Shown here piece after piece: positions 6,797 to 53,290 of a stretch of DNA of 53,290 nucleotides (position 1 is the first letter of the stretch; every line of letters begins with the position of its first letter). The notes beneath the pieces are model-generated. The model was not told the DNA's origin. It did not search any database and worked only from the letters and a program-made list of their open reading frames with translations. Made by a program: the position numbers and the translations under genes. The stretch is from a virus, in UHGV virus genome UHGV-0119950. The stretch is one strand, 5' to 3'.

Positions 6797-6920
6797 TATT
6801 TGATCCTCAATTCGTGTAGAATGGAGGCGCCTTAATGGCACCTCGGTTTTACCAGGTGATGTCCGGTGTAACTTTGGTCGGTGCCACCGGACGGAAGGCC
6901 CACCCTGTGTGGGCTTTCGC

Positions 6921-8256: not shown

Positions 8257-8526
8257 ATGTTGGGAGAGGGAGCGTGTGTTATGCTCACAAAAACATCAAT
8301 TGGCGAGGGCTGGGTGATGGATTACGAAGAACTGGCGCAACTGCGCTATCAGGAAATGTGCCGGATTGTGGGGGATGTCGTTTTTGCGATGGTGGCTGAA
8401 GGGCATGAAACCAAAAGAGTGGCTATAGCTGACGTGATACGAACGGAGATATCGAAGGGGCTGGATAAGTGGGATGCTGACCAGATTCAGGTTATGGAAC
8501 TGGCAGTGAAGTTTCTGGAAGAGTAG
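8257..8526 (+). CDS. hypothetical protein transcribed divergently from early-left operon
   Basis: 89 aa ORF (possible later start at MLTKTS); followed by strong terminator. Confidence 0.45.
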   Translation: MLGEGACVMLTKTSIGEGWVMDYEELAQLRYQEMCRIVGDVVFAMVAEGHETKRVAIADVIRTEISKGLDKWDADQIQVMELAVKFLEE

Positions 8527-8528
8527 GG

Positions 8529-8562
8529 CAATAAAAAACCCGGCTCGGTGGCCGGGTGTTTT
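8529..8562. terminator. bidirectional rho-independent terminator
   Basis: Hairpin CCCGGCTCGGTGGCCGGG flanked by A-run upstream and T-run downstream; ends both the 8257..8526 gene and the minus-strand cassette. Confidence 0.6.
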
Positions 8563-8954
8563 TAGTTACACGCGAATTTTATACCATCTAGTGTTGTGTT
8601 TTTAAGGATGTCTTCGGCATAAAATTTGAAGTAAACCCTCATCAAAGATGAAAAATACCAAGTATATTCCTTTAAAAAATCCTCATTGAGATTTTCGCTT
8701 TTTGGATAAGAGAAAATCATTCTAATGTCGATTTTTAGAGAAAAATCTGGTTTTTCACTGCCTTTCCTGAACCCTTGAGCGATGGGGCTTGCTGAAACTT
8801 TAATTGATGACATTGATGGATCGCCACCACCGACTTCAAAATCTAAGGCGCCATATACAACCTTGATCGTGCCCTCACCAGGTGTAAGCATGGTTTGATT
8901 GAACTCCACGTTTAGAATCGCAGATTCAACCATGTTGATATCGTTAGGCAACAT
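8562..8954 (-). CDS. hypothetical protein, cassette gene 3 of 3
   Basis: 130 aa; AT-rich; start overlaps stop of upstream gene by 11 nt; no recognisable motif. Confidence 0.5.
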   Translation of the reverse strand: MLPNDINMVESAILNVEFNQTMLTPGEGTIKVVYGALDFEVGGGDPSMSSIKVSASPIAQGFRKGSEKPDFSLKIDIRMIFSYPKSENLNEDFLKEYTWYFSSLMRVYFKFYAEDILKNTTLDGIKFACN

Positions 8955-9363
8955 TTATCTCATAATCCCTGTTTTGAGGCTTAATGGTAATCTTGATGAC
9001 TGGGCTTGGTTCGTCCATGAAACTATTTAAATTCATAACGTAGTGCTTATGAGCAGGTATAACAGGATGAGAAACATCACATCCATTCTTCAGGATTACT
9101 ACTTTTGCTTCGGCACCTAGAGCGTAGGAAATATCGGAGAGGGTTTTTAGTGTCATGTTCCTAGTTCCATCTAGCAACTGAGAAACATGCGAAGCCGACT
9201 TGCCAAGTTTTTTAGCAAGTTCACGCTTAGTTATACCTGTATCCTGCATAGCTAAAAGGATGTCTTCTGTAGTATTGAACACTAATCGTTCGGAAGCCAT
9301 CTCTCTATCACTAATGTATGGAAAACCAAAAATTTCTTCTGCGAAAGTCTTATCAGTAGTCAT
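8944..9363 (-). CDS. XRE-family HTH DNA-binding protein (antitoxin-like), cassette gene 2 of 3
   Basis: 139 aa; helix-turn-helix segment ITKRELAKKLGKSASHVSQLLDG; overlaps both neighbours. Confidence 0.6.
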   Translation of the reverse strand: MTTDKTFAEEIFGFPYISDREMASERLVFNTTEDILLAMQDTGITKRELAKKLGKSASHVSQLLDGTRNMTLKTLSDISYALGAEAKVVILKNGCDVSHPVIPAHKHYVMNLNSFMDEPSPVIKITIKPQNRDYEINVA

Positions 9364-9781
9364 CTAAACCTCTCTCGATTCTCTCCCAGTTGTTACAAAC
9401 TTTTTGGACATCAGAATCGCTTAAATCATCAAAATCTTTGTAGATGTAATGACTCATAAAATAAGTCATTGATACTCTCTCCGACTCCCAGTAGTACCCT
9501 CGAATAGGTATCTTCTTTATAGCCCAGAAATTTTTTTTAGGTTTGCCATTGTAAGAAGGCAGTATTCCTTCCTTTCTGACGCTGAGATCTGGAGTTCTTT
9601 TACCTGATGCCAGGCGCTCTATTTGTAGTCTAAGCTTGACCATCATGGCTTTTTGCTTCTTAGCAGGAGTAACACTCAGTATCGCATCAGCTAGAGTTTT
9701 TAGCGCTCCATTACAATGGGTTACAGTGAAGCAAGCGCCCTTAAAAGTATGTTGAACCATCCACTTATCCATAGTTAACAT
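9353..9781 (-). CDS. hypothetical protein, possible RelE/HigB-like toxin fold, cassette gene 1 of 3
   Basis: 142 aa; AT-rich; precedes an HTH gene in toxin-then-antitoxin order; toxin assignment is only by arrangement and loose pattern; start codon uncertain (no clear RBS). Confidence 0.45.
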   Translation of the reverse strand: MLTMDKWMVQHTFKGACFTVTHCNGALKTLADAILSVTPAKKQKAMMVKLRLQIERLASGKRTPDLSVRKEGILPSYNGKPKKNFWAIKKIPIRGYYWESERVSMTYFMSHYIYKDFDDLSDSDVQKVCNNWERIERGLDDY

Positions 9782-9875
9782 ATATATTAACTCACAATTT
9801 GCAAGTGAGCCACCTTCATCTTATAGAGATAATCCGAAAAGCATGATGGTTAGCAATTCATGTCCTTATCAACTC

Positions 9876-10031
9876 TCAAAGGGACATACCGATAACGGCA
9901 TTAACCACACTTGACGCCATAAACACGCCGCCAACGATGAAGCTGGCCTGGTTCTTCCTGGTAGCGCCAAGAGTCAACAGAACCACTGAAAGGGCAAAGA
10001 AAGGTATCGCGATTATGCTGAACGTGTTCAT
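9876..10031 (-). CDS. small hydrophobic membrane protein, 51 aa
   Basis: Not in ORF track. Translation MNTFSIIAIPFFALSVVLLTLGATRKNQASFIVGGVFMASSVVNAVIGMSL; two hydrophobic stretches; directly downstream of repressor gene on same strand. Confidence 0.4.
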   Translation of the reverse strand: MNTFSIIAIPFFALSVVLLTLGATRKNQASFIVGGVFMASSVVNAVIGMSL

Positions 10032-10043
10032 GTTGACCTCAAG

Positions 10044-10463
10044 TTATTGCGATTCTCCGTCACCCTTAATCCGTCGCCCCATGTACTTCGCGTACAGCTC
10101 GTCGAGCTCCTTCAGTCGCAGAGATACGATCCGCAACATGTTCTGCTGCTCTTCTTCCGGCAGCTGGCGATAGAGTTCCAGCAGGCGCTGCTCGTCAGGC
10201 TTCATACCATCTTTCTCGCCGACATCTTCCCCGAGCAGCCAGGCGACCGAAACACCAACAGCATCGGCTATAGCCAGTGCTGATTTTTTGCTAATAACGC
10301 CTTTTTTAAACCAGCTATTGACCGCCTGAGGCGAGACTCCGGCTATTCGCGCCATATCTGCTTTGGTAATGCCTCTGGCATAGACCTCGTTGAGTCGCGC
10401 TATCAATGCTTTGTTGGGTTCTTCTTTTCTCATTCTCTCATTGTAAATGGTTAGTTTACACAC
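10044..10463 (-). CDS. prophage repressor, CI-like HTH, no S24 peptidase domain
   Basis: 139 aa; HTH (ITKADMARIAGVSPQAVNSWFKKG); divergent from cro-like gene; too short for a LexA-like cleavage domain. Confidence 0.75.
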   Translation of the reverse strand: MCKLTIYNERMRKEEPNKALIARLNEVYARGITKADMARIAGVSPQAVNSWFKKGVISKKSALAIADAVGVSVAWLLGEDVGEKDGMKPDEQRLLELYRQLPEEEQQNMLRIVSLRLKELDELYAKYMGRRIKGDGESQ

Positions 10464-10534
10464 TCAATAAATTGAATATTGATTGAAATATAAATCTGTG
10501 GTTTACTTTCTTCGTTGATAGTTAGGAGAAGAAA
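10464..10534. promoter_or_regulatory. OR-like operator/promoter region between repressor and cro-like gene
   Basis: 71-bp divergent intergenic region with AT-rich repeated TTGATTGAAAT/ATTGAATATTG motifs. Confidence 0.45.
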
Positions 10535-10768
10535 ATGACAGCACTTGATAAAGCAATTAAGGCCGCTGGTTCAGCGAGAAAGCTAAGCATGGCACTTGGT
10601 GTAACCAGTATGTCAATTAGCCATTGGAAACATCGCGACAGAGGCATTGTGCCGCCAGATTACATATTAAAAATTCACAGCATAACCGGTGTTACTCCCC
10701 ACGAATTGCGCCCTGATCTGTATCCGAACCCAACGGATGGATTACCGGCGCAGGAAGCGAGGGCGTAA
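10535..10768 (+). CDS. cro: Cro-like HTH regulator
   Basis: 77 aa; HTH (SARKLSMALGVTSMSISHWKHR); divergent from repressor. Confidence 0.7.
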   Translation: MTALDKAIKAAGSARKLSMALGVTSMSISHWKHRDRGIVPPDYILKIHSITGVTPHELRPDLYPNPTDGLPAQEARA

Positions 10769-10770
10769 CC

Positions 10771-11313
10771 GTGCATTCAATTTCATTTCAACAAAATACC
10801 GGGTTTCCTCCAGCCACGATGATAAATCGCAATCAGCCTGATCCGGCGGATAAGCATGACCAGATTCGGGCTGCCGTTCGTGCGTGGTCGGCATCGCTGG
10901 ACAACCAGGACGTAGTCGCCGGGATCATCGTTGAAGAATGGGAACGGCAGGGCGGCGCCGGGCTGGATTTTCCTGACGACCTGAGCCGTAAGCGGCAGAA
11001 GCTTTTCCGCTGGCTGGACAGCGACACCGGATATGCGCGCGAAAACATCCGCCAGCTGACTCCGGCAATCCTGGCTGTTATGCCGCTGGAATTTCGTGGG
11101 CGCCTTATCGGACAGGATTGTTTCATGACGCGTTTTGCAGCGATGGAGAAGGAAATCAGCGAGGCGAAACAGGCCGTAATGTTGAATGCGCCAAAGCATC
11201 AACTGGTGAAAGAGGTCAGGGAAGGGATTGAGCATCTGCTGAATATGTTGCCGGATGATGCTGTTGTTCAGGTTCTGAGTGGTATCGCGGCCATAGCGCC
11301 GGGTGTCATGTGA
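10771..11313 (+). CDS. CII-like regulatory protein (possibly CP76-type)
   Basis: 180 aa ORF immediately after cro-like gene (GTG start); position matches lambdoid cII; family call from memory. Confidence 0.45.
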   Translation: MHSISFQQNTGFPPATMINRNQPDPADKHDQIRAAVRAWSASLDNQDVVAGIIVEEWERQGGAGLDFPDDLSRKRQKLFRWLDSDTGYARENIRQLTPAILAVMPLEFRGRLIGQDCFMTRFAAMEKEISEAKQAVMLNAPKHQLVKEVREGIEHLLNMLPDDAVVQVLSGIAAIAPGVM

Positions 11314-11576: not shown

Positions 11577-11695
11577 AAGGGTGAAGACCGCTGTGCTCGA
11601 ACACAGACGGCCTTCGGGTGCAATTAGTTGCGTACTCATTGCGAGGTCATTATGACAAAGAGTTTTTCAAAACACCAGGCAAGGGAGGCATAGCT

Positions 11696-16825: not shown

Positions 16826-17082
16826 TGGATCAACTTCTGCAATACGCCACCAATCGGATTATAGAACTGGAAAACCTTCTGCTGGTGAATGTTGAGGAAA
16901 CGGTCTGGCCAGCAGAGGTTCAGATGGTTTTTAGTCAAATCGAAAACGCCGGGAGTTTCCCGGCGCACCACCAGCGCCGATTGCAGCACCACATCAACAG
17001 AATGTGGCTGGAAAAAATACCGGTTACTTCGATTATTGCCGCAGCGCGCTCGCTGGCAGATGCAATGGAGAAATACGCGTGA
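16822..17082 (+). CDS. hypothetical protein
   Basis: 86 aa ORF. Confidence 0.4.
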   Translation: MMDQLLQYATNRIIELENLLLVNVEETVWPAEVQMVFSQIENAGSFPAHHQRRLQHHINRMWLEKIPVTSIIAAARSLADAMEKYA

Positions 17083-19160
17083 GAAATAGCGAAATCATTG
17101 TTGATAATTTTGCTGGTGGCGGCGGTGCTTCCACTGGAATTGAGATGGCGACTGGCCGCAGCGTGGACATTGCGATTAACCACGATCCGAATGCCGTTGC
17201 GATGCACACGACAAACCACCCCAATACACTGCATTATTGCGAATCTGTCTACGATGTCAGGCCGAAGGTAGCGACCGCCGGGCGTCCGGTGGCGCTGGCG
17301 TGGTTCTCGCCGGATTGCCGTCACTTTTCAAAAGCCAAAGGTGCGAAGCCGGTAGAGAAAGCGATCCGGGGTCTGGCCTGGGTAGTTCTGCGCTGGGGGC
17401 TGGATGTAAAACCCCGGGTGATGAAACTGGAGAACGTCGAAGAATTTAAAACGTGGGGCCCTTTGCTCGCTGGTGAAATGAGGCCAGACCCGGCCCGTGC
17501 TGGAGAAAATTTTGAGGCGTTCATTGGTATGCTGACTACTGGCATCCGGGCTGACCACCCGGCACTGGCGGAGTGCTGTGAATTTCTGGGTATTTCTCTT
17601 GATAGTGAAGACGCCGCGAGGCTGATCAAAGGGCTGGGCTACATCGTCGAGTATCGCGAGTTGCGCGCCTGCGACTACGGTGCGCCGACGATCCGCAAGC
17701 GATTCTTTATGATTATGCGTTGTGACGGGAAACCGATTGTGTGGCCTGAGCCAACACATGGCGATCCGAAATCACCGGCTGTCCAGGCTGGTAAGCTGGC
17801 ACCGTGGCGCACAGCTGCGGAGTGCATAGACTGGACAATTCCGGCTCCATCGATATTCGATCGCAAAAAGCCGCTGGCAGAAAATACCCTTAAGCGCATC
17901 GCGCGCGGCATCCAGCGATTTGTTATCGACAGTGCGTCGCCGTTTATCGTGAAGTGCAACCACACCAGCAGCCGTTCAAGTTATGATTGTTTCCGTGGGC
18001 AGCCACTGGAAGAACCCCTGCAAACGATCACGAAAAAGCATGGTTACGCCGTCGCAGTACCACATCTGACGAAGTTCCGTACCGGCGCAACCGGGCAGGA
18101 AGTCACCGAACCTGTACCGACTGTAACAGCTGGCACGTCGGCGCGCCCGGGTGGGAATGGTCATGCGCTTGGTATCGTTGAAGCTGCGCTGACTCCGTTC
18201 CTGGCTGGTAATGGCGGCAGTGAGTACCAGGCTAAGCCGCGCCCGCTGGATAAACCAGCTCACACTATACTGAAACAATCCCGGGCATGTGTCGTTGCGC
18301 CGGTTATCGCCCGACAGTTTGGCGCCAGCACCGGCCACCGCGCAGATGAGCCGAACGCGACTATTACCGCTGGTGGCGGCGGTAAATCGCAACTTGTTAC
18401 ATCGACACTGATCCAGATGGGATACGGGGAAAGGCCAGGTCAGGAACCTCGCGTTCTCCAGATCGAAAAACCGTTAGGGACAGTAACCGCTGGTGGAAAC
18501 AAGTTCGCCGTGGCCAGCGCATTTCTGGCGAAGCACTACGGCGGCAACTATACGGGACCGGGCGTCGGGCTGGATGAGCCGACTCACTCAGTTACGACGG
18601 TTGATCATCATGCGGTTGTTGCGGCACATCTAATGGTGAACAACACCGGGCATCCTGGCGGCTCCGTGGACTCTCCAGCGCATACCGTTACAACAGGAAA
18701 TCACCATGCTGTAGTGACTTCTCATCTTGTGCATTTGCGAGGGTTCTGCAAAGACGGTCAAAAAATGGATCAGCCGGTGCCAACGATTACCGCCGGAGGC
18801 CAGCATGTTGGGGAGGTGAAAACCACTCTGGCAGTTGAGCACTACAACGAACAGCGCGCGCAACAGACGTTGGCGTTCCTGCGTGAATATTGCGGCGAAG
18901 ATTGTACCGGGCTGGTGGATATCGACGGGATCACATATCGTATTGTTGATATCGGAATGCGCATGCTGCAACCGCATGAGCTTTACCGCGCGCAGGGCTT
19001 CCCGGACTGGTACATCATCGATCGGGATTATCGCGGCGTGAAGTATGCAAAGGATAAGCAGGTTGCCCGCTGCGGTAATGCTGTGCCGCCACCGTTCGCC
19101 GAGGCTCTGGTAAGGGCCAATTTACCCGAACTTTGCCAGCCGAAAGAAATGGCAGCGTAA
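17079..19160 (+). CDS. DNA (cytosine-5) methyltransferase with eight tandem repeats in the variable region
   Basis: Motif I DNFAGGGG, motif IV SPDCRHFS (Cys present, PDC not PCQ), motif VI LENVEEF, motif IX QGFPDWY, motif X CGNAV; GTG at 17079 with GGAG upstream chosen over track start 17004. Confidence 0.8.
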   Translation: MRNSEIIVDNFAGGGGASTGIEMATGRSVDIAINHDPNAVAMHTTNHPNTLHYCESVYDVRPKVATAGRPVALAWFSPDCRHFSKAKGAKPVEKAIRGLAWVVLRWGLDVKPRVMKLENVEEFKTWGPLLAGEMRPDPARAGENFEAFIGMLTTGIRADHPALAECCEFLGISLDSEDAARLIKGLGYIVEYRELRACDYGAPTIRKRFFMIMRCDGKPIVWPEPTHGDPKSPAVQAGKLAPWRTAAECIDWTIPAPSIFDRKKPLAENTLKRIARGIQRFVIDSASPFIVKCNHTSSRSSYDCFRGQPLEEPLQTITKKHGYAVAVPHLTKFRTGATGQEVTEPVPTVTAGTSARPGGNGHALGIVEAALTPFLAGNGGSEYQAKPRPLDKPAHTILKQSRACVVAPVIARQFGASTGHRADEPNATITAGGGGKSQLVTSTLIQMGYGERPGQEPRVLQIEKPLGTVTAGGNKFAVASAFLAKHYGGNYTGPGVGLDEPTHSVTTVDHHAVVAAHLMVNNTGHPGGSVDSPAHTVTTGNHHAVVTSHLVHLRGFCKDGQKMDQPVPTITAGGQHVGEVKTTLAVEHYNEQRAQQTLAFLREYCGEDCTGLVDIDGITYRIVDIGMRMLQPHELYRAQGFPDWYIIDRDYRGVKYAKDKQVARCGNAVPPPFAEALVRANLPELCQPKEMAA

Positions 19161-19166
19161 TGTATA

Positions 19167-19200
19167 ATCCCTCTCAAAGCATCGAGAGGGATTCGTTTTT
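19167..19200 (+). terminator. rho-independent terminator after methyltransferase
   Basis: Stem ATCCCTCTC / GAGAGGGAT with 8-nt loop, followed by T-run. Confidence 0.5.
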
Positions 19201-19377
19201 CTTCGGTATCTCGCGCTGCGGACTGTAGAGTTTCCCGTTAATAACTATCCAGCTACCCTTAATCCACTTCGTGACCTGCTGTCGATTAACGCCCATATGT
19301 CTGGCGAACTCTGATTGATTTCCCTGGTGGTGAATAGCAATGTAATCGGTCAAGGTAAGAGCATTCATGTTATTCAC
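19174..19377 (-). CDS. Cro-like HTH DNA-binding protein
   Basis: 67 aa; HTH (QSEFARHMGVNRQQVTKWIKG); start overlaps stop of upstream acidic-protein gene. Confidence 0.5.
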   Translation of the reverse strand: MNNMNALTLTDYIAIHHQGNQSEFARHMGVNRQQVTKWIKGSWIVINGKLYSPQREIPKKNESLSML

Positions 19378-19840
19378 CTTTTACAGCAGGGTTGACGATC
19401 AGATAGCTGGTACCGTGCTCGTCTTCCATTTCTACAGCGTCGAAACCAAGATGGGCGGCAGCGCGACCTCTCAGGCGCTGCATTTCCCAACTAGCTGCTG
19501 CAAACTCATCCGCTGAATCAGTCCGAGGTGACAGAATATCAGCAAACGCGTCGTCACACTCATCGTCAGCCAGTGCGTATGCCAGCGCTTCCAGTTGTTC
19601 TTCGTCTGCTTCAACTTCACTACGCAGGAAACTTATGACATCAGCGATACGGTCGTGTAAGTCTCCATTATCTGCGATGATTTCAACGTTGTAGCTGTAA
19701 ACAAAATTACCGTGAGAGCCTGCAACATCGAAATCTGAGCAAGCAAAGATACCATCAAAAATATTGTCACCAGACATTGCGAAAGCGCCAACTTTGATTA
19801 CTGGAGCGGTGTTTTCGTATGAGCCGTGAAACAGTTTCAT
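19370..19840 (-). CDS. hypothetical strongly acidic protein
   Basis: 156 aa; long acidic stretch (EVEADEEQLEALAYALADDECDDAFADIL); co-oriented with downstream HTH gene. Confidence 0.5.
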   Translation of the reverse strand: MKLFHGSYENTAPVIKVGAFAMSGDNIFDGIFACSDFDVAGSHGNFVYSYNVEIIADNGDLHDRIADVISFLRSEVEADEEQLEALAYALADDECDDAFADILSPRTDSADEFAAASWEMQRLRGRAAAHLGFDAVEMEDEHGTSYLIVNPAVKGE

Positions 19841-19893: not shown

Positions 19894-20072
19894 TTCAAGT
19901 GACTTTTATCACGGATCGGAAAGACATTGGTACGTGTATAATGATAAAAAATGAATACCGTAGGGGATTGCATGTCAGACTGGAATATCGCAGCAAAATA
20001 GAAAGAAGAGCAGGACAAGGTTAATGTTGATCTGGCCGCCAGCGGCGTTGCGTATAAAGAGCGCCTGAACAT

Positions 20073-20231
20073 GCCGGTTGTTGCTGAAGTGGTGATGCGT
20101 GAGCAGCCGGAGCACTTGCGCGACTATTTCATTGAGCGCGTCAGATACTATCGTGAGCAAAGCCTGAAGCTACCGAAATCATCCGATCCGCGCTACATCG
20201 AAATGGCTGAGCAGAACGCCAAAAAGTAACT
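20073..20231 (+). CDS. hypothetical small protein (52 aa)
   Basis: Not in ORF track; short ORF ([30 protein letters not shown]...) ending just before a strong terminator; coding status uncertain. Confidence 0.25.
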
Positions 20232-20248
20232 GAACATGGAATGAACTC

Positions 20249-20271
20249 AACCCGCTTCGGCGGGTTTTTTT
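20249..20271 (+). terminator. rho-independent terminator
   Basis: AACCCGCTTCGGCGGGTT hairpin followed by TTTTTTT. Confidence 0.6.
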
Positions 20272-20342
20272 ACGCCTGAAATTTGTGTCTACGGGTTAAC
20301 AATTCGTGCTCTTAAAACGTTGATCATTTCGTTTTATAGGTA

Positions 20343-20362
20343 TACTGTATAAAAATACAGTA
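20343..20362. promoter_or_regulatory. LexA box (SOS operator)
   Basis: TACTGTATAAAAATACAGTA, exact CTGT-N8-ACAG palindrome, about 20 bp upstream of dinI-like start. Confidence 0.75.
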
Positions 20363-20380: not shown

Positions 20381-20614
20381 ATGAAAGTTGAGTTAACTAT
20401 TGATCGAACAAAGAAACTTCCTGATGGTGCAGTGCCAGCACTTGAAAAAGAATTGCTTAAACGACTGAATAATCAGTATGAGAATTGCAGCCTGACAATC
20501 CGTCGCGCCGGATCAGATGGACTGAGCGTTTTCGGTGGCGATAAGGACGATAAAAAGAAAATTGAAAAGATCCTCCAGGAGACCTGGGAAAGCGCTGACG
20601 ACTGGTTTTACTAA
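20381..20614 (+). CDS. dinI: DinI-family protein
   Basis: MKVELTIDRTKKLP...KIEKILQETWESADDWFY matches E. coli DinI as I recall it (C-terminal ILQETWESADDWF); RBS GGAGG; LexA box upstream. Confidence 0.8.
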   Translation: MKVELTIDRTKKLPDGAVPALEKELLKRLNNQYENCSLTIRRAGSDGLSVFGGDKDDKKKIEKILQETWESADDWFY

Positions 20615-20730
20615 CATTGCGCTTGGGGCTGGCGCGCATTTTTCAGAATACCGCAATTTGCGTATCCCTTTGATGCTGCTGCCGACAATTTTTAACCGCG
20701 TCTGTATGTCGCTCGAAGGGAGAACAGAAT

Positions 20731-20979
20731 GTGAGTAATTCAGCTTTGCAAACGTCAGAAGATAACTGGTATGACATTGTAAGACGGTCTGACGGCTGCG
20801 TGGTGTTTAGCTTTCCTTCGTCGGGCAGGCATCTTATCTATCGCGTCAATGGCATGGTTTCCATGCGGCCTTTGCTGGATGATGAAGAAGTCTTTACTCC
20901 CAATGGCTTTATGCAATTTATTCGCCGTCTCGGCTACCGGGTAACGCCGCCTTCTGATAATATGAAATCAACGGTCTGA
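20731..20979 (+). CDS. hypothetical protein
   Basis: 82 aa, GTG start with RBS AAGGGAG. Confidence 0.4.
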   Translation: MSNSALQTSEDNWYDIVRRSDGCVVFSFPSSGRHLIYRVNGMVSMRPLLDDEEVFTPNGFMQFIRRLGYRVTPPSDNMKSTV

Positions 20980-21016: not shown

Positions 21017-21616
21017 ATGGCGCAATTACAACTCATTAAGCAGTCAACAGGAATCCTGATCCCCGCGACGCCGGAGACCAGTGATTTTCTGCAATCAAAA
21101 TGCAAGCTCGGCTCCGTTCTGGTTGCCGACTTTAAGCTTGTCCGCAATCCGGCGTTTCATCGCCGTTTCTTTGCGCTCCTGAATCTTGGATTCGAATACT
21201 GGGAACCAACGGGCGGCGCCATATCAGCTAACGAGCGAAAACTGGTGAATGGTTACGCCAGATTCCTGGCATCGTATGGCGGGAATGAAGGGGCGTTGCT
21301 GGATGCTGCTGAGCAGTATCTGGAGCAGATCGCCAGTCGCCGTATCACGAACGGAATCAGCCTGTGTAAATCCTTTGATGCATACCGCGCCTGGGTAACT
21401 GTCGAGGCCGGTCACTTTGACGCCATCCAGTTACCAGATGGCACGCTCCGCAAACACCCTCGCAGCATCGCGTTCTCCAGTATGGACGAAACCGAATTCC
21501 AGCATCTCTATAAGGCCGCGCTCGATGTCCTGTGGCGCTGGATATTGTCCCGTACCTTCAACAGCAGGGAAGAGGCTGAGAACGCCGCCGCCCAGCTCAT
21601 GAGCTTTGCGGGGTAA
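21017..21616 (+). CDS. hypothetical nin-region-like protein (possibly DUF1367/YbcN-like)
   Basis: 199 aa ORF upstream of ybcO-like and rusA; family call from memory, not verified. Confidence 0.4.
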   Translation: MAQLQLIKQSTGILIPATPETSDFLQSKCKLGSVLVADFKLVRNPAFHRRFFALLNLGFEYWEPTGGAISANERKLVNGYARFLASYGGNEGALLDAAEQYLEQIASRRITNGISLCKSFDAYRAWVTVEAGHFDAIQLPDGTLRKHPRSIAFSSMDETEFQHLYKAALDVLWRWILSRTFNSREEAENAAAQLMSFAG

Positions 21617-27235: not shown

Positions 27236-28222
27236 ATGGCAAAACCGGACTGGGGCGAGCTTCAGCAACGGTTCCTGTCCGACAATGCCGCTACCGGCGT
27301 ATCACCGAAGGATTGGTGTGAAGCGCAGGGACTGAATTACGCAACAGCCCGCCGATACATAAAAAGACCAACTGCGCAAAAACCTGCGCAGAAAAAATTG
27401 CGCACTGCGCAAAAGGAAAAATGCGCAAAAGAGTTGGTGGATGATGACGGTCTTACTGCTCAGCAGCGTTTATTTGTTGCGGAGTACCTGAAGGATAACA
27501 ATGCCACGCAGGCTGCCATTCGTGCCGGGTACAGCAAGAAGACTGCTGAACAAATTGGGTATCAACTTCTTCAGAAAACTTCAGTTGCGCAGGCAATTGC
27601 GCAGCAGCAGAAAGAATCGTTAATGCGCACACTCGGCAGCGCAGACGAGGTGCTTGCGCAGATGTGGCAACTCGCCACTTTCGACGCAAATCAGCTTTCG
27701 CAATATCGTCGTGGCTGCTGCCGCTACTGCTGGGGCTTTGGTCATCAGTATCAGTGGCGTGACGCAGTTGAGTATGAAGAGAAGCGACTCGAAGCGATTG
27801 AACGCAAACGTCGCGAGCCTGAGGACGTGGGCGGATATGGATATGACCATACGCAGGAACCAAATCCTGATTGCCCGCGCTGTAATGGTGATGGCATTGG
27901 TCAGCCGTTCTTTGCCGACACGCGCAAACTGGCACCTGATGCTGCGCTTGCCTATTCCGGCGTTAAGCTCGGCAAGTACGGCGTTGAAATTACCGCGATA
28001 AGCCGCGAACGGATGTTTGAAGCCGTAATGAAGCGCCTCGGCCTGGCAGACAGTGAATTTGCTCAGCGCCTGCAACAATTGGAAATTGAACGACGACAAT
28101 TGGAGGTTGACAAACTTCGATGGGAGATAGCCCTGGATAAAAACCCAGCGGGATTTGAAGAGGATTATCAACTTCAGCCAATAACTCCCGATGAGGAACC
28201 TCCAGATGATCCAATCCTCTAA
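27236..28222 (+). CDS. terminase small subunit
   Basis: 328 aa; segment LTAQQRLFVAEYLKDNNATQAAIRAGYSKKTAEQIGYQLL typical of TerS; immediately upstream of TerL. Confidence 0.75.
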   Translation: MAKPDWGELQQRFLSDNAATGVSPKDWCEAQGLNYATARRYIKRPTAQKPAQKKLRTAQKEKCAKELVDDDGLTAQQRLFVAEYLKDNNATQAAIRAGYSKKTAEQIGYQLLQKTSVAQAIAQQQKESLMRTLGSADEVLAQMWQLATFDANQLSQYRRGCCRYCWGFGHQYQWRDAVEYEEKRLEAIERKRREPEDVGGYGYDHTQEPNPDCPRCNGDGIGQPFFADTRKLAPDAALAYSGVKLGKYGVEITAISRERMFEAVMKRLGLADSEFAQRLQQLEIERRQLEVDKLRWEIALDKNPAGFEEDYQLQPITPDEEPPDDPIL

Positions 28223-45432: not shown

Positions 45433-48146
45433 CCATCAGAATTTATCCTTCCCGGTTACCCGGCGAGCCGCTGGAAACGCATGAACATGGTGCGGTGACT
45501 ATTCATCAGTGGATGGCGCGGAATGTTGAAAATTACCGCGCTGACATGAAGCATCCGATCGCCATTGAAGTGGACGGCGTGAATATCCCGGCTGCTGCAT
45601 GGTTTGATTATGCGATCAGCCCGAAAAGTGATGTGCGCATTTATCCGGTCCCTCATGGCGCCGTTGCGCTGGCGTGGATTGCCGTTGCTGTTTCGGTCGC
45701 ATCTGTTGCTTATGCGCTGTTCTTTGCGCCTGGCGCATCAGATCCCGGTGGTTTCTCTTCGTCGACAGGCGATTCACTGGACGTTAACCCGGCAAAAGCG
45801 AACCGTGCAAAGCTGGGTGATCCAATTCGCGAGTTGTTCGGACGCCGCCGAATTTACCCCGATTACGTAGTGCAACCGGTAACCCGCTTCAGCCCGGACG
45901 ATCCGACAGTGATGACCGTTGAAATGTTCGTTGCTCTGGGATTCGGACAATTTTCATTCGGCGAAGGGGATATGCGCGTCGGCGCCACGCCAGTTTCATC
46001 GCTTGGTGATGGTTTCGCATACACCGTTTTTCAGCCGGGCCAGAATGTGGCTGGTGATCGCCGTAGTGAAAACTGGTTTAACTCTACCGAGGTTGGCGGG
46101 ACGTCATCGGGTGCCGGGCTGGATATGGCCCAGACCGCACCGGATACGGATGATGTGTTAGCGCAGTCACTGACGGTGTCGGGAAGCACAATCACGTTTA
46201 ACGGATTAAGCGCTGATGATGATACTGCAACAAACGAGCTGCCTGATTCGTGGATTGCTGGCGCAACGGTTGAGCTAATCGTACCCGATCAGTTTGTTGT
46301 TACCAATGATGGCGCATACAGCCGCATTACCAGTGACAATCTGGCGGAAATAGCCCCTTACGTCGGAATGCCGGTAACGCTCTGGTACAACAGCGTCGAC
46401 TACAGTCTGTTTATCGCTTCGTATACGCCGCATGCAGACGCGACAGAGGAAGAAGAGGAAGTCACCGCGTCGATAACGCTGGCTTATGAGAGTGAAACCG
46501 GCGCGCCTTTTACGGGTATTCCTGAGGGGTATATCAGGCTTTCCGTTTCTCACGCTGGGTATCAGTACAAAATTTTCGATGTGGACGGCACCAGTGTAAC
46601 TCTTCAACGCTTGATTGATGGTGTTGTCGATAACACATGGCCGGGTTTCGTGGCGCGCACCGTGCTTGATTTTGAGGCATCTGGCGTTAACCAGAACGAC
46701 TCCTGGATGGGCCCGTTTCTGGCATGCCCGGATAATGAAACCATCGACATGTTTGAAGTGAATTTCTTCTTCCCGAATGGCATTTGCGGATACGACAAAA
46801 AAGGGAGAAAACAAAACAGAACGGTTCGCTGGGAAGTTCAGTACCGCGTTTATGGCTCTGGTTCGGGATGGATGAGCAAAACCGGTTCGTATAACACAAA
46901 AAATATTAATGGCCTTGGTTTCACTGAGCGCATCACGCTGAGTTCTCCCGGCCTTGTTGAAGTGCGGTGCCGACGCACTAACGAACAGGGGCAGGATAAC
47001 AGCCGCGATAATATGTACTGGCAATCATTGCGTGGCCGCCTGCTGACCAGACCGTCATCGTACGCTGGCGTAACGACTATGGGGGTCACGGTGGAAACCG
47101 GCGGCAAGCTGGCGGCGCAGTCCGATCGCCGGGTGAACGTGGTAGCCACAAGGATTTACGACACTGGCGCGGCGCGCAGCATATCCGGCGCGCTGTACCA
47201 CGTTGGTAACTCGTTGGGGCTGGATATGGACACCGACGCCATTAATGCGCTGGAAAGCGCGTACTGGACGCCTGACAATGAGTTTTTTGACTTCGAGACG
47301 ACCGATAGTACATCTGCGCTGGAGGTTTTACAGAAGATCGCCAACGCCGGGAAAAGCTATTTTCTGCTGGCAGACGGGCTTGCCTCGGTTGCGCGCGAAG
47401 GCGTTAAGCCCTGGTCGGGGGTTATCAGTCCGCATGAGATGACCGAGGATCTGCAAACCGCGTTTGTGGCTCCTTCTGACGACGACTATGACGGCGTGGA
47501 TGTTACGTATATCAACGGAACGACATGGGCGGAGGAAACGGTACAGTGCCGGACACCGGATAATCCAACGCCCGTAAAAATCGAAGACTATACGCTTGAT
47601 GGCGTGCTAGACCGGGACCGGGCATATCAGATCGGCATGCGGCGGCTGATTAAGTACCTACAGCAACGGCTGACGCATACGACATTAACCGAACTGGACG
47701 CCCTTTGCTATAACGTCGGCGACCGCATAGTGCTGACAGACGATATTCCTGGCAATAAAACCATTTCCTGTCTGGTTGATGAAATGACAACCGAAAATGC
47801 GCTGACAACATTCACGGTAACCGAGCCATTGGATTGGAGTTATGAAAACCCGCGAGTGATCATCCGATTTCAGGACGGGACCGCATCATCTCTTCTTACG
47901 GCAATCAGGGCTGGTGATTATCAGGTGACGGTGCGATACCTGAATGAATTTGCTGAAATCGTCCTCAATGATCCGGCTATTGAGCCACCACGCCTTATTT
48001 TTTGCGACTCTTCGCGCGTTGGCTATAACGCCATTATCTCTGAGATCGCGCCTCAATCTGATGGCACATGCCAGATAACGGCGAAACAGTATAAACCCAG
48101 CTTCTACGATTACGACAATGCCACTTATCCCGGCAACGTCGTATAA
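45429..48146 (+). CDS. tail tip / host specificity protein (gpI-like N-terminus fused to gpJ-like body)
   Basis: 905 aa; N-terminal region with hydrophobic segment as in lambda gpI; large size; followed by terminator and tailspike gene. Confidence 0.65.
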   Translation: MTIRIYPSRLPGEPLETHEHGAVTIHQWMARNVENYRADMKHPIAIEVDGVNIPAAAWFDYAISPKSDVRIYPVPHGAVALAWIAVAVSVASVAYALFFAPGASDPGGFSSSTGDSLDVNPAKANRAKLGDPIRELFGRRRIYPDYVVQPVTRFSPDDPTVMTVEMFVALGFGQFSFGEGDMRVGATPVSSLGDGFAYTVFQPGQNVAGDRRSENWFNSTEVGGTSSGAGLDMAQTAPDTDDVLAQSLTVSGSTITFNGLSADDDTATNELPDSWIAGATVELIVPDQFVVTNDGAYSRITSDNLAEIAPYVGMPVTLWYNSVDYSLFIASYTPHADATEEEEEVTASITLAYESETGAPFTGIPEGYIRLSVSHAGYQYKIFDVDGTSVTLQRLIDGVVDNTWPGFVARTVLDFEASGVNQNDSWMGPFLACPDNETIDMFEVNFFFPNGICGYDKKGRKQNRTVRWEVQYRVYGSGSGWMSKTGSYNTKNINGLGFTERITLSSPGLVEVRCRRTNEQGQDNSRDNMYWQSLRGRLLTRPSSYAGVTTMGVTVETGGKLAAQSDRRVNVVATRIYDTGAARSISGALYHVGNSLGLDMDTDAINALESAYWTPDNEFFDFETTDSTSALEVLQKIANAGKSYFLLADGLASVAREGVKPWSGVISPHEMTEDLQTAFVAPSDDDYDGVDVTYINGTTWAEETVQCRTPDNPTPVKIEDYTLDGVLDRDRAYQIGMRRLIKYLQQRLTHTTLTELDALCYNVGDRIVLTDDIPGNKTISCLVDEMTTENALTTFTVTEPLDWSYENPRVIIRFQDGTASSLLTAIRAGDYQVTVRYLNEFAEIVLNDPAIEPPRLIFCDSSRVGYNAIISEIAPQSDGTCQITAKQYKPSFYDYDNATYPGNVV

Positions 48147-48166
48147 CAACAATCTCTCCAATACAG

Positions 48167-48188
48167 ACCCGCTCCGGCGGGTTTTTTC
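48167..48188 (+). terminator. rho-independent terminator
   Basis: ACCCGC-TCCG-GCGGGT hairpin followed by TTTTTT. Confidence 0.6.
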
Positions 48189-48203
48189 GTTTATGAGGCC
48201 CAT

Positions 48204-50165
48204 ATGACGACTTACAACACCGGCAATCCGCTGGGGTCTGCTGCTGCAAAAGATTTGTACGATAACGCCCAGAACCTTGATCACCTTTCAAATGACCAGG
48301 AAAATGAGCTATGGCCTGATCGTTTTGGTAAAAATCGCCTTACATGGCACGGAATGGAAGAGCGTTATAAAACAGCGCTCGCAAACCTCGGTTTAAATCC
48401 TGTCGGGACATTTCAGGGCGGGGCGGTTATTAATTCCGCCGGTGACATCATCCAGGATGAAACAACAGGCGCATGGTATCGCTGGGATGATCTCACGACC
48501 CTGCCGAAAACCGTTCCATCTGGTTCTACTCCAGATTCATCCGGCGGCACAGGTGTCGGAAAATGGCTGGCCGTAGATGTCAGCGATGTGTTGAGAAAAC
48601 AACTTGCTGAAGAAGGAAGTCAGGTTCTCATTTCTGGTGAAACCGCTGACGATGTGGCTCTTGCTTCAAAAACGGCTAAACTTTTATCACAGTATTCACA
48701 TGTTCGTAGTTATTCTGATGATAGCGAAAAAATACTTAATATCTTTGATAATGAAAATTGCTCTCTCGAAGGTGGAGTGTACTACTTAAATGATTCCTTC
48801 GACTTCATAGGTAATAAAAATATTAGAGTTAATAAAGACACGACAATTAATGTAACCGGAGAAATAGATCAACTATTTAGATTCCTTGGTCATGTGGCAT
48901 GGGATGGGTTAGGTAAGCTTACTATTAATGCAAATCATTTTGACAAGCCTGACAGAACTGAGTCTATTCTTTGCTTTCCAAATTATATCCCAACCCTTAA
49001 TAATATTGATATCCATGGAGCTAACGGGCTTTCTGTTCTGGTCGGAATGCCTAGTTTTGGACCCGGAGCACCTGTTGCACAAGGTATCGGATATATAAAA
49101 AATGTACGTACATTTGATTGTGGAAAGGGGGTGCATGTATATGGTAATGTTAATAAAGATACCACAATTATTACAGAGAATCTTTATACCGATAATTTAA
49201 CTGGTTATCTGAATGGCAATGGAAACGGTGGCGGCGGAAATACTTTTTATCTTTCGTATCATCGCCAGGCTAAAAACATCGGTGGATACTTTGAGCATCA
49301 TCCTGACAGCTATGGATCAAATATCAACAGGAGTCTTTATGGAGCCTACGAGGGTGGATGGTTTCAAGGGGCTGATGGAACTCAGTCGCGGGGCCCAACT
49401 TTTGGTGAGGATCTCGAGTATGGTGCGATATATGGCGGAGGTGTTTCAAGAAATTGTGGCTTTGCTGCAATTTCCGCTGACATCAGAAAATCAGATGGCT
49501 CATATCCGATTTCTAGAGTTTTAATTGACGGGTGGACTGCTATAGAGTGTGGTAGAACTATATATTCTCAGGCGCAAGATCTCAGTTTCGGAAATATTCA
49601 CACAAAGGAATCTAAGTCTGGTGATTTTTTGATAAGGATTAATGGTGCAACTCCTAAATCAGTTAAGCAAACTGGTGTGGTAACAGCGTTTAATGGAACA
49701 TCGTCGACAAAACCTACTCTTATTTGGGCGGATAAGACCACATCTTTGTATCTGATTCCTGAACAGATAGTCTCTGATGATACCGTTAACATTAACGTGC
49801 CTGTAGTAGCTGATAACTCAACATCCACAGGATCGGAAATAAATATAGGAACCCAGTATCCCATTGTTACTCAAGATTATATAATCCCGAACATGCGTAG
49901 AGTAACGGAGGTTGATATGTCTTTAGTTTCATCAGTCATAACACTCAGACTTCCAGCAGCAAATCTAAGCAATATAAAAGGTATGCAGCATAAAATTTAT
50001 GTGAGAGGTGGCAATGGAACAAAAATATTACGAATTACGGTTAATAATGCGGATGGTACAATAAATGGAGCCACCGGATACATTGATTTTACACCACAAG
50101 CAGGATCTGTGCGTGTTATTGATTGCCTGAACAAAGGTTCAGGCAATTACCTTGTAACCACGTAA
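48204..50165 (+). CDS. tailspike / tail fibre protein with AT-rich C-terminal receptor-binding module
   Basis: 653 aa; N-terminal part at backbone GC, C-terminal about 520 aa AT-rich, Asn/Gly/Thr-rich as in beta-helical tailspikes. Confidence 0.65.
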   Translation: MTTYNTGNPLGSAAAKDLYDNAQNLDHLSNDQENELWPDRFGKNRLTWHGMEERYKTALANLGLNPVGTFQGGAVINSAGDIIQDETTGAWYRWDDLTTLPKTVPSGSTPDSSGGTGVGKWLAVDVSDVLRKQLAEEGSQVLISGETADDVALASKTAKLLSQYSHVRSYSDDSEKILNIFDNENCSLEGGVYYLNDSFDFIGNKNIRVNKDTTINVTGEIDQLFRFLGHVAWDGLGKLTINANHFDKPDRTESILCFPNYIPTLNNIDIHGANGLSVLVGMPSFGPGAPVAQGIGYIKNVRTFDCGKGVHVYGNVNKDTTIITENLYTDNLTGYLNGNGNGGGGNTFYLSYHRQAKNIGGYFEHHPDSYGSNINRSLYGAYEGGWFQGADGTQSRGPTFGEDLEYGAIYGGGVSRNCGFAAISADIRKSDGSYPISRVLIDGWTAIECGRTIYSQAQDLSFGNIHTKESKSGDFLIRINGATPKSVKQTGVVTAFNGTSSTKPTLIWADKTTSLYLIPEQIVSDDTVNINVPVVADNSTSTGSEINIGTQYPIVTQDYIIPNMRRVTEVDMSLVSSVITLRLPAANLSNIKGMQHKIYVRGGNGTKILRITVNNADGTINGATGYIDFTPQAGSVRVIDCLNKGSGNYLVTT

Positions 50166-50176
50166 TGCCGATTATT

Positions 50177-51262
50177 TTACGTATTTACGATATTTTTCTT
50201 AACTTTTGCAGCGCGCGGCGCTAAATGCCGCGCCACTTTCCTTGAAGGTTCTTCTACAATGTGGAAAAGTATATGCGAAATGGCGAAACTTACGCCAACA
50301 ATCAACAAAACATTTGAGAATCCAAGTTTAGGATTATAAAATGGCACGGGAAGGTATTTTTTAAGAAGTACAGTTATTACTATTGTATGTACAAGATAAA
50401 GCGAATAAGAAACGTTGCCCATCCAGTCAAGGATTTTATTTAATTTTATCTCTCTTGTTGTTTCGAATATTGAAAGAGAAAGCAAAAGCATAAAAGCATA
50501 AACACCACAATTTAGCAATCCGTGACCGCCATTATATCCAGACATATAGAAGAATATAAATGCAAAAACAGAAATAAAGAGTAACGGCGCTGATATATTT
50601 TTGAAAGAGTGAATTTTTGCATAGTTATAGATCTGATAGATAACCATCCCAGCGACGAACTCAAGTAGCATTGGCGATGCGAACAGTTTTAGCACCCATG
50701 GGGCGCTAGGGTCGTTTAATGTTGAATATCCACTAAGATTAATCTCACCATTATATAGTATTCCCAAAATAGATACTGAAGCAATTATTATTGCAGTGCT
50801 AATATAAAATCTATTCTTCCAGGAAATCGACATCGCAAATGAAAATATGATGTAAAAAATTATCTCATACGTCAGAGTCCAGGCAGTTGATATCACCGAA
50901 TAACCGAACCAAGGGGCTGATTTCTCAAAGTTTAAGTTAATAAAGAAAAGGGCTTTTAGATAATTAATATCTATCGGCTTTGTGAATATTAATGCGCATG
51001 ACACCAGACATATAAAATAAACAGGGTATAATCTAAAAAAACGCTTCACAATAAATGAACGAACAGAGGAGTCCTTTTCTGTTGACAACATGATTACAAA
51101 TCCACTTATCATGAAAAAAAGATCCACTCCTATGTATCCATAGTTAAACAATATGTTACCCAAATTGCTCTGAGCATAAATATTGTTCAATTCTCCACGG
51201 GCATGATATAAGACGACAAGCAAAGCAGCTATTCCACGGAGGTATTGCAAAGAATAAAGCAT
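50177..51262 (-). CDS. acyltransferase family 3 membrane protein (O-antigen acetylase-like)
   Basis: 361 aa, many transmembrane segments; N-terminal LRGIAALLVVLYHA signature; AT-rich; convergent with tailspike. Confidence 0.75.
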   Translation of the reverse strand: MLYSLQYLRGIAALLVVLYHARGELNNIYAQSNLGNILFNYGYIGVDLFFMISGFVIMLSTEKDSSVRSFIVKRFFRLYPVYFICLVSCALIFTKPIDINYLKALFFINLNFEKSAPWFGYSVISTAWTLTYEIIFYIIFSFAMSISWKNRFYISTAIIIASVSILGILYNGEINLSGYSTLNDPSAPWVLKLFASPMLLEFVAGMVIYQIYNYAKIHSFKNISAPLLFISVFAFIFFYMSGYNGGHGLLNCGVYAFMLLLSLSIFETTREIKLNKILDWMGNVSYSLYLVHTIVITVLLKKYLPVPFYNPKLGFSNVLLIVGVSFAISHILFHIVEEPSRKVARHLAPRAAKVKKNIVNT

Positions 51263-51515
51263 TTTATTAGCCTTGGTTGTTTATTTTTTAATAGTAAGAA
51301 ATTTATCAATTCTAGCATTCATCCCGCTTGTGAGCGACAATTTTGTTAACATTATGTCATTGTGATGGGTGCGCATTTAAAAAATCATTACTGGTGGTTG
51401 CCTGCTGCTGACTTCCCACCTGACCAATCACCCATAAAACTAAATTTCACCTCCCGCCAGTCACTTACTGTTTCATTCACTCTTAGGGGCTTGATTGCTG
51501 CCACCGATGCAATAA

Positions 51516-51535
51516 TACTGTATGTATAGACAGTG
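51516..51535. promoter_or_regulatory. LexA box upstream of umuD
   Basis: TACTGTATGTATAGACAGTG, exact CTGT-N8-ACAG, 18 bp upstream of the umuD-like start. Confidence 0.7.
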
Positions 51536-51552
51536 TCATTGAGGTGATTATC

Positions 51553-51972
51553 ATGCAGTTTTTCACGCCTACAGAACCACGCCAGATAGTGTCGCTCCCA
51601 ATGTTTAGTGATCTTGTGCAATGCGGGTTTCCTTCGCCAGCCGCAGATTACGTTGAGTCGCGTATAGACCTTAACGAATTGCTGGTGCGGCACCCAAGCG
51701 CGACGTATTTCGTAAAGTCCACTGGAGATTCTATGCGTGATGCTGGAATCGGCGAGGGCGATTTGTTGGTAGTCGACAGTTCACGAAAAGCAGGGCATGG
51801 AGACATTGTCATTGCAGCGGTCGATGGTGAGTTCACAGTTAAGCGCCTGTTGCTGCATCCGGTTGTCATGCTAAAGCCTGAAAACTCTGTGTATAAACCA
51901 ATCATGATTGGGAGTGAAGACAATCTGGAGGTTTTTGGCGTCGTAACTTACATCGTGAAGTCTGCTGACTGA
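51553..51972 (+). CDS. umuD: UmuD-like protein (S24 peptidase, pol V accessory subunit)
   Basis: [18 protein letters not shown]...[13 protein letters not shown]...[17 protein letters not shown] matches E. coli UmuD as I recall it; RBS GAGGTG. Confidence 0.85.
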
Positions 51973-51974
51973 GT

Positions 51975-53240: not shown

Positions 53241-53290
53241 AAAAAGTGTCTGTCGTAAATAGTATCTGCCCGGCATGGCCCATCAATGTG

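Follow-up and report, generated by a model that had tools for sequence, protein, structure and literature searches.

A probable Gifsy-type induction switch with an S24-less repressor and a LexA-controlled antirepressor operon in a lambdoid prophage of Citrobacter koseri

The viral genome UHGV-0119950 was analysed as one stretch of 53,290 nucleotides (nt), referred to below as the window. Cluster names point to Citrobacter koseri as the host; phoP lies at 50-724, and the gene of a 428-amino-acid (aa) integrase at 795-2081. The analysis deals with the short repressor of this lambdoid prophage and with the genes by which it may be inactivated during induction, a question raised by an earlier note on the same DNA. 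The open reading frame (ORF) of the repressor was confirmed at 10044-10463 on the minus strand, and the following features were determined in the immunity region:

10044-10433, minus strand: repressor of the GfoR/GfhR family, 129 aa, ATG at 10433, with an HTH_3 domain and without an S24 domain
10440-10467, minus strand: PRM-like promoter TTGAGT-16-TACAAT, reading from 10467 to 10440, a match of the consensus scan
10535-10768, plus strand: cro-like gene of the YdaS family, divergent from the repressor (PF15943, E 4.3e-14)
10771-11313, plus strand: gene in the cII position, YdaT family (PF06254, E 2.4e-47)

The replication genes O and P follow downstream of the cII-position gene. Read from the in-frame GTG at 10463, the repressor would be 139 aa long, the length considered in the earlier note. 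As transcripts from the promoter at 10467-10440 would begin close to the ATG at 10433, the repressor of the lysogen is probably the 129-aa form; both forms are present in the databases. The arrangement parallels that of gfhR, the promoter of which sits between two in-frame start codons (PMC3121763).

The earlier description of the repressor as a short protein with an N-terminal helix-turn-helix (HTH) domain and without an S24 autopeptidase domain was borne out. The Pfam search resulted in matches to HTH_3 (residues 29-76, E 3.4e-8) and Phage_CI_repr and to nothing else; Peptidase_S24 (PF00717), with its Ser/Lys dyad and Ala-Gly cleavage site, was sought in the repressor by the same search and gave no match, while UmuD from the same window, used as a positive control, matched it with an E-value of 6.7e-28. 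The best 120 of at least 1000 relatives of the repressor were 116-216 aa long and contained HTH_3, with or without Phage_CI_repr, and nothing more; no PF00717 match was present among these 120. The AlphaFold2 model of the repressor (mean predicted local distance difference test, pLDDT, 84.6) consisted of helices throughout and had no beta structure. In the model, a five-helix HTH domain (8-66) is connected by a low-confidence linker (67-78) to a tail made of a helix (79-89), a turn and a long helix (93-123).

The repressor shared 70% identity with the protein annotated as repressor in phage mEp237 and 27% with GtgR/GftR from strain LT2, and it resembled DicA and RacR of NCBIfam weakly, below the threshold. 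The PDB sequence search gave nothing meaningful, the ubiquitin matches being without any significant stretch. The C-terminal sequence of the repressor, AKYMGRRIKGDGESQ, resembles the primer-derived end of GfhR, AKYMSRRIKGEGA, and 31 of the 40 nt of the gfhR 3' primer were matched. The primer-derived C-termini of both GfhR and GfoR (EKYMKGRIRTRED) agree with the repressor family. A short repressor without S24 points to induction through a LexA-controlled antirepressor, as in the Gifsy phages.

The 3' end of the repressor gene has a feature of its own. The 210 bp at 9875-10084, which span a membrane-like ORF of 51 aa (9876-10031) and the last repressor codons, were 94.8% identical to HK97, HK225 and a Lambdavirus; with this identity and coverage the stretch looks like a mosaic recombination joint. 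In phages mEp237 (L002 3621-4497) and SEN34 (L014 4944-5747) the repressor gene is directly followed on its 3' side by a paralogue, a second repressor-like gene with 48-59% identity to the repressor of the window; the window prophage itself lacks such a gene. Beyond the 51-aa ORF, near the position of lambda rexAB, three minus-strand genes with overlapping stops and starts occupy 8562-9781 and encode proteins of 142 aa, 139 aa (an HTH protein) and 130 aa. The HTH protein matched components of the PADLOC candidate defence system PDC-M64 weakly (E 1.7e-11) as well as HigA-like antitoxins, and the module may be defence or toxin-antitoxin cargo.

About 10 kb away from the immunity region, a second group of features was found:

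20249-20273, plus strand: terminator-like hairpin AACCCGCTTCGGCGGGTT (20249-20266) followed by a T run, from the terminator scan
20320-20362, plus strand: SOS promoter region with a -35-like TTGATC (20320-20325) and a -10-like TATACT/TACTGT, overlapped by the LexA box at 20343-20362
20381-20614, plus strand: dinI homologue, with which the LexA-controlled operon begins (PF06183, E 5e-27)
20615-20730, plus strand: leader of 116 nt from dinI to the antirepressor, supported by conservation, with two predicted hairpins
20731-20979, plus strand: antirepressor, a GfoA orthologue of 82 aa with a GTG start and the Shine-Dalgarno sequence AAGGGAG 8 nt upstream
21017-21616, plus strand: irsA homologue (DUF1367; PHROG NinB/Orf-like), third gene of the operon, 88% identical to Gifsy-1 STM2620

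LexA sites were ranked by a heterology index that was built on E. coli LexA sites, and its values are approximate. Exact matches to CTGT-N8-ACAG occur in the whole window at 11591, 20345 and 51518. The box at 20343-20362 (TACTGTATAAAAATACAGTA) had the best index of the window, 1.1, and the umuD box at 51516-51535 had 4.1; the earlier note had placed LexA boxes at these same two positions. Its statement that the box in front of the dinI-like gene is the single one inside the phage also held in the scan of the window. The third-best site, with an index of 8.8, lies within a terminase small-subunit-like gene (28131-28150, CCCTGGATAAAAACCCAGCG) and is probably a chance match; the site at 11591 had an index above 15, and no site with an index below 6 was produced in 100 shuffles. 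There is one strong phage-internal LexA box, which fronts the dinI homologue, and each of the 16 loci in the alignment, Gifsy-1 among them, has a box in the corresponding place. A hairpin similar to that at 20249-20273 was visible in most of these loci. A terminator upstream of the LexA box has been described for all Gifsy prophages (PMC3121763), and the hairpin of the window would insulate the SOS operon from upstream transcription.

The other LexA-boxed operon of the window, umuDC (51544-53240), comes after the tail-fibre region and an acyltransferase gene of the Acyl_transf_3 family (50177-51262, minus strand). A direct repeat of at least 13 nt that could represent attL/attR was not found between positions 1-2200 and 48000-53290, and umuDC may accordingly be either prophage cargo or host DNA.

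The order of the genes behind the SOS promoter is dinI (with a probable start at 20381), a GTG-start ORF of 82 codons 116 nt further on, and the irsA homologue. The dinI homologue was 70% identical to Gifsy-1 STM2621; the irsA homologue matched phrog_319, and its relatives have PF07105. In Gifsy-1, -2 and -3 a LexA box with a preceding terminator adjoins dinI, and the antirepressors GftA, GfoA and GfhA are the products of a short ORF that begins with a non-canonical codon and is flanked by dinI and irsA; the Gifsy repressors, of about 136 aa, are not cleaved (PMC3121763). The expression of the antirepressor alone induces the Gifsy prophage, and a stable complex with the repressor was obtained by pull-down (Lemire, Figueroa-Bossi, Bossi, PLoS Genet 2011, PMC3121763).

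The 82-codon ORF was compared with the gfoA primers of Table S1 of PMC3121763, namely the 5' fusion primer ATG-AGTAATTCAGCTTTGCAAAAG and the 3' tagging primer ending in TCGTCGTCTCGGCTACCGGGTAACACCACCTTCTGATATA. The former matched in 20 of 21 nt right after the GTG at 20731, the latter in 35 of 40 nt at 20922-20961. Scanning IMG/VR with the 21-nt gfoA 5' sequence (start codon excluded) resulted in 37 viral contigs, in each of which the start codon is TTG. A complete protein of 82 aa was encoded in 36 of them, identical to the window ORF at 77-78 of the 82 residues (94-95%), and in one the ORF was cut off. The exact gfoA 3' primer sequence and a GTG-start version of the 5' sequence were both absent from IMG/VR. 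The ratio of nonsynonymous to synonymous divergence (dN/dS) was 0.02-0.16 in pairwise comparisons with eight homologues; such strong purifying selection indicates that the ORF is a real gene. ABV13015.1 of C. koseri ATCC BAA-895 is the identical protein, and the index of the assembly collection has the exact sequence in 1116 blocks, each time under the name "hypothetical protein".

No Pfam or NCBIfam model matched the antirepressor, and with its GTG start the ORF is easily missed. In PHROGs it falls in phrog_340 and phrog_1813, both of unknown function. The comparison with LT2 GftA by BLASTP was not significant (E 0.72), while hhalign with the antirepressor family profile aligned the full length of GftA (E 5.9e-5, probability 65%). 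A similarity detectable by hhalign only fits the published distant relationship, GfoA and GftA being only distantly related (PMC3121763). The AlphaFold2 model of the antirepressor contained four strands and one helix at moderate confidence (pLDDT 67.6); Foldseek found no PDB match to it with an E-value below 1, and the PDB sequence search with the antirepressor gave nothing meaningful.

The antirepressor and the repressor family were found to occur together. A repressor of the GfoR/GfhR family was located within 10 kb upstream in 13 of the 14 loci with a GfoA homologue, these loci being phages mEp237, SEN34, SPN3UB and ST846-OXA48phi9.2, six contigs that encode the identical protein, and four out of the five contigs from Citrobacter type strains; the scan of genome contigs yielded five close Citrobacter loci only. 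The accompanying repressors were 58-100% identical to that of the window, and they include a GfoR-like allele (locus L009) with an N-terminal ...KTHQ as in primer le108. The identical antirepressor sequence was paired with at least five repressor alleles, 67-100% identical to the window repressor. In the alignment of the repressors, 25 of the C-terminal 45 residues (DEQRLLELYRQLPEEEQQNMLRIVSLRLKELDELYAKYMGRRIKGD) were invariant, with a mean conservation of 0.88, and the mean conservation of the N-terminal 20 residues was 0.5. Diverged antirepressors accompany diverged repressors: in SPN3UB the two proteins were 38% and 33% identical to those of the window, respectively, and in the LT2 pair GftA/GtgR the similarity of the antirepressor was at the profile level only and the repressor was 27% identical.

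From this distribution we infer that the antirepressor may dock on the conserved C-terminal helices of the repressor. In that case a single antirepressor could act on prophages that differ in the DNA-binding domain of the repressor and are presumably heteroimmune, and the published cross-reaction of GfoA with the heteroimmune GfoR and GfhR (PMC3121763) would be accounted for.

The leader between dinI and the antirepressor gene was nearly invariant across the phages of Citrobacter, Salmonella, E. coli and Klebsiella, and LT2 Gifsy-1 keeps it despite an unrelated antirepressor protein of the GftA type. The divergence of its 3' 80 nt was 7-18%, compared with 20-45% at the synonymous sites of the adjacent gene; a hidden ORF was excluded by indels of 1 and 2 nt. 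The terminator scan placed a terminator-like hairpin (20618-20636, with CATTTTTC behind it) immediately 3' of dinI, and in a further predicted hairpin UCCCUUUGAUG pairs with the Shine-Dalgarno region CUCGAAGGGAG. The Rfam search of the leader gave no family, the fold energy was unremarkable (z = -1.0), and covariation was negligible in the consensus structure, in which 1 of 29 pairs was compensatory, so that a leader RNA element is at most a candidate. It is conceivable, albeit doubtful, that the leader is a cis element acting as a second checkpoint by means of the terminator-like hairpin, the hairpin occluding the Shine-Dalgarno sequence and the GTG/TTG start, and the related reading of C-terminal docking is just as tentative. 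The hairpins and this start codon together would hold the output of the antirepressor low unless SOS transcription was strong or sustained. Post-transcriptional or H-NS-mediated control is possible as well; repression of gfoA by H-NS is suggested in a meeting report of 2018 (PMC6563222).

The sequence features of a Gifsy-type module were all found in the window: a short repressor without S24, the succession of terminator, LexA box and dinI, the order of the operon, and homology to GfoA/GfhA. Gene content and order, the LexA box, the orthology to GfoA and to GfoR/GfhR and the absence of the S24 domain are observed, and the lambdoid prophage of C. koseri very probably has a Gifsy-type induction switch of two modules. 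The first module would be the immunity region, in which a helical, non-cleavable repressor of 129 aa is divergent from the cro-like and cII-position genes, and the second, about 10 kb apart, the insulated SOS operon, composed of terminator, LexA-boxed promoter, dinI, leader, antirepressor and irsA. In the undamaged cell the second module would be kept off by LexA. After DNA damage, the RecA-stimulated cleavage of LexA would open the promoter of dinI-gfoA-irsA; the 82-aa antirepressor would be made, bind the repressor dimer and take it off the operators, and the lytic genes would be turned on. The binding between antirepressor and repressor, the dependence on LexA and the non-cleavage of the repressor are expected by homology to the experiments with Salmonella. 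The general idea of the earlier note, that induction goes through a LexA-controlled antirepressor as in Gifsy, was correct, whereas its suggestion that this antirepressor had yet to be identified or is encoded elsewhere was not: the GfoA orthologue lies at 20731-20979. The statement that no LexA box stands ahead of an antirepressor-like gene likewise fails, the box at 20343-20362 controlling the dinI-antirepressor-irsA operon.

Other routes to the inactivation of the repressor were weighed against the Gifsy-type switch. The earlier note had proposed an antirepressor outside the SOS operon, namely the gene at 8257-8526, the acidic protein of 19370-19840 or a gene elsewhere in the genome. Antirepressors acting in trans from other prophages do exist, such as Fels-1 FsoA on Gifsy-2 GftR (PMC3121763). 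DUF2767 proteins have no established role in phages, and in one other locus, L008, a DUF2767 gene is also situated near the immunity region. Nevertheless, both candidates were rejected on their family matches. The protein of 19370-19840 (minus strand) belongs by sequence to AcrIF11, as it aligned in full length with the NCBIfam equivalog NF052490 of anti-CRISPR ADP-ribosyltransferases (E 1.3e-36, 126.6 bits with a cutoff of 50), and that of 8257-8526 matched the DUF2767 and FumD family with 100.9 bits (cutoff 82). Neither gene has a LexA box, the scan of about 38 ORFs from the early regions and the prophage ends was negative for Ant, KilA-N, Bro and Peptidase_M78 domains, and a GfoA orthologue is already present under the LexA box, which makes an antirepressor outside the operon very unlikely. 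The chance that the repressor is removed by proteolysis is slighter still. ImmA-type proteases cleave short XRE-type repressors in ICEBs1 and in some Gram-positive phages, and the related locus L006 has a weak Peptidase_M78/U49 match near dinI. On the other hand, the absence of S24 and the all-helical fold of the repressor speak against cryptic RecA-stimulated self-cleavage, the lack of an M78 domain in the scanned ORFs of the window, those flanking the repressor and of the early regions included, against an ImmA-like protease, and the persistence of uncleaved Gifsy repressors during induction (PMC3121763) against both.

Several considerations do weigh against the Gifsy-type switch itself. The binding of this particular repressor allele by this antirepressor is expected from analogy. 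The antirepressor model, with a pLDDT of 67.6 and without a PDB relative, provides no independent structural support. The gfoA 3' primer implies a C-terminus ...PPSDI, while the ORFs of the window and of IMG/VR end with ...PPSDNMKST(V/A), and the identity to GfoA of strain 14028, read from the primers and from the ORFs that bear the 5' primer sequence, is an indirect figure. The terminator-like hairpin between dinI and the antirepressor gene might limit the expression of the latter. The resident antirepressor of Gifsy-2 is reportedly ineffective in practice, GftR being inactivated only by FsoA of Fels-1. This precedent also favours a situation in which the GfoA orthologue is expressed without an effect on the resident repressor and cross-induces others only, or in which the prophage is defective and not SOS-inducible; the N-termini of the repressors are far less conserved than the antirepressor, and the hairpin with a possibly sequestered Shine-Dalgarno sequence could hold its level low. 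Such an outcome is nonetheless improbable. The same antirepressor occurs with repressors of 98-100% identity in independent contigs (L003, L005, L007), and the C-terminal region of the repressor is essentially identical to that of the alleles paired with GfoA-type antirepressors. Furthermore, the prophage has an integrase, RecET, O/P replication genes, a Q homologue and lysis and terminase-like genes, the other structural genes being predicted from ORF layout and synteny.

Compared with known systems, the module of the window is a close orthologue of that of Gifsy-1 and Gifsy-3 (ATCC 14028, GfoR/GfhR with GfoA/GfhA), judged by sequence. In common are the short, S24-less repressor with its C-terminal motif, the succession of terminator, LexA box, dinI, antirepressor with a non-canonical start and irsA, a nearly identical leader, and an antirepressor about 95% identical to the ORFs that bear the gfoA 5' primer sequence. 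The window differs in its host, C. koseri, in the GTG start instead of the TTG of Salmonella and in the N-terminal HTH region of the repressor, the last difference implying another immunity than that of Gifsy-1 and Gifsy-3. The SOS operon is about 7 kb away from the replication genes, compared with 1.3 kb in Gifsy, owing to inserted cargo (the 718-aa C5-methylase, the AcrIF11-like gene and the theta-subunit remnant). Gifsy-2, with GftR(GtgR)/GftA, and Fels-1, with FsoA, have the same architecture, with the antirepressor in the same place, along with an irsA homologue of 88% and a leader of about 85% identity; in Gifsy-2, however, GftA is related at the profile level only (hhalign E 5.9e-5) and the repressor is 27% identical.

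More remote systems share parts of the design. The DicA/Rem pair of E. coli Qin (Ragunathan and Vanderpool 2023, PMC10448788), to which later work extended the family, is similar by description, with a short DicA-type repressor and a small antirepressor found by homology to GfoA; it differs in that the signal controlling Rem is not known and no LexA box was reported. LexA-controlled antirepressors directed against non-cleavable repressors are also present in coliphage 186 (Tum) and N15 (AntC), and Tum has a DinI-like half. In Tum the antirepressor part comes first and is fused to the DinI part (PMC3121763), whereas in the window dinI comes first and the two are separate ORFs 116 nt apart, so that no fusion of the Tum type is present. 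The repressors of the lambda CI, P22 C2 and LexA type resemble that of the window in the N-terminal HTH, the divergent repressor-cro layout and the SOS-dependent induction; they differ in having S24 and in responding by RecA-stimulated self-cleavage instead of through LexA and an antirepressor. An adjacent Peptidase_M78 (COG2856), as in ImmR/ImmA, was absent from the scanned ORFs flanking the repressor and of the early regions.

Several further genes lie in the interval from the replication genes to the SOS operon. An unusually long C5-cytosine DNA methyltransferase gene of 718 aa occupies 17004-19160 (plus strand). Immediately downstream of the AcrIF11-like gene, a 67-aa HTH gene (19174-19377, minus strand) is placed as in acr-aca pairs and likely encodes an Aca regulator; a promoter-like site was noticed near the AcrIF11-like gene at 19898 to 19871 (minus strand). 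The homologue of the DNA polymerase III theta subunit (HolE/Hot-like) at 19975-20229 (plus strand) has an in-frame TAG after codon 9 (ATGTCAGACTGGAATATCGCAGCAAAATAG), the ORF comprising only the C-terminal 52 codons, and it is probably a pseudogene. Elsewhere, 6834-6919 (plus strand) matched the Hfq-binding small RNA isrB of Rfam with 59.6 bits, the gathering threshold being 35; the match is antisense to the long recE-like ORF at its 5' end. At most 22% of the 8-22 kb stretch was covered by complete E. coli genomes in megablast.

The mechanism of the Gifsy-type switch has been known since 2011, and the dinI-irsA region and gfoR homologues were already reported to be conserved in Citrobacter (PMC3121763); the value of the present finding as a discovery is therefore small. 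Its value lies in annotation, the antirepressor being labelled "hypothetical protein" everywhere. With no Pfam or NCBIfam model and a GTG or TTG start, it is overlooked by automated and manual readers alike, who conclude that a trigger is absent. For the biology of C. koseri, the prophage is predicted to be inducible by antibiotics that trigger the SOS response. Cross-induction of co-resident Gifsy-like prophages with the same C-terminal repressor domain may also occur, and docking on the invariant C-terminal helices, if true, would explain the cross-induction of heteroimmune prophages across genera.

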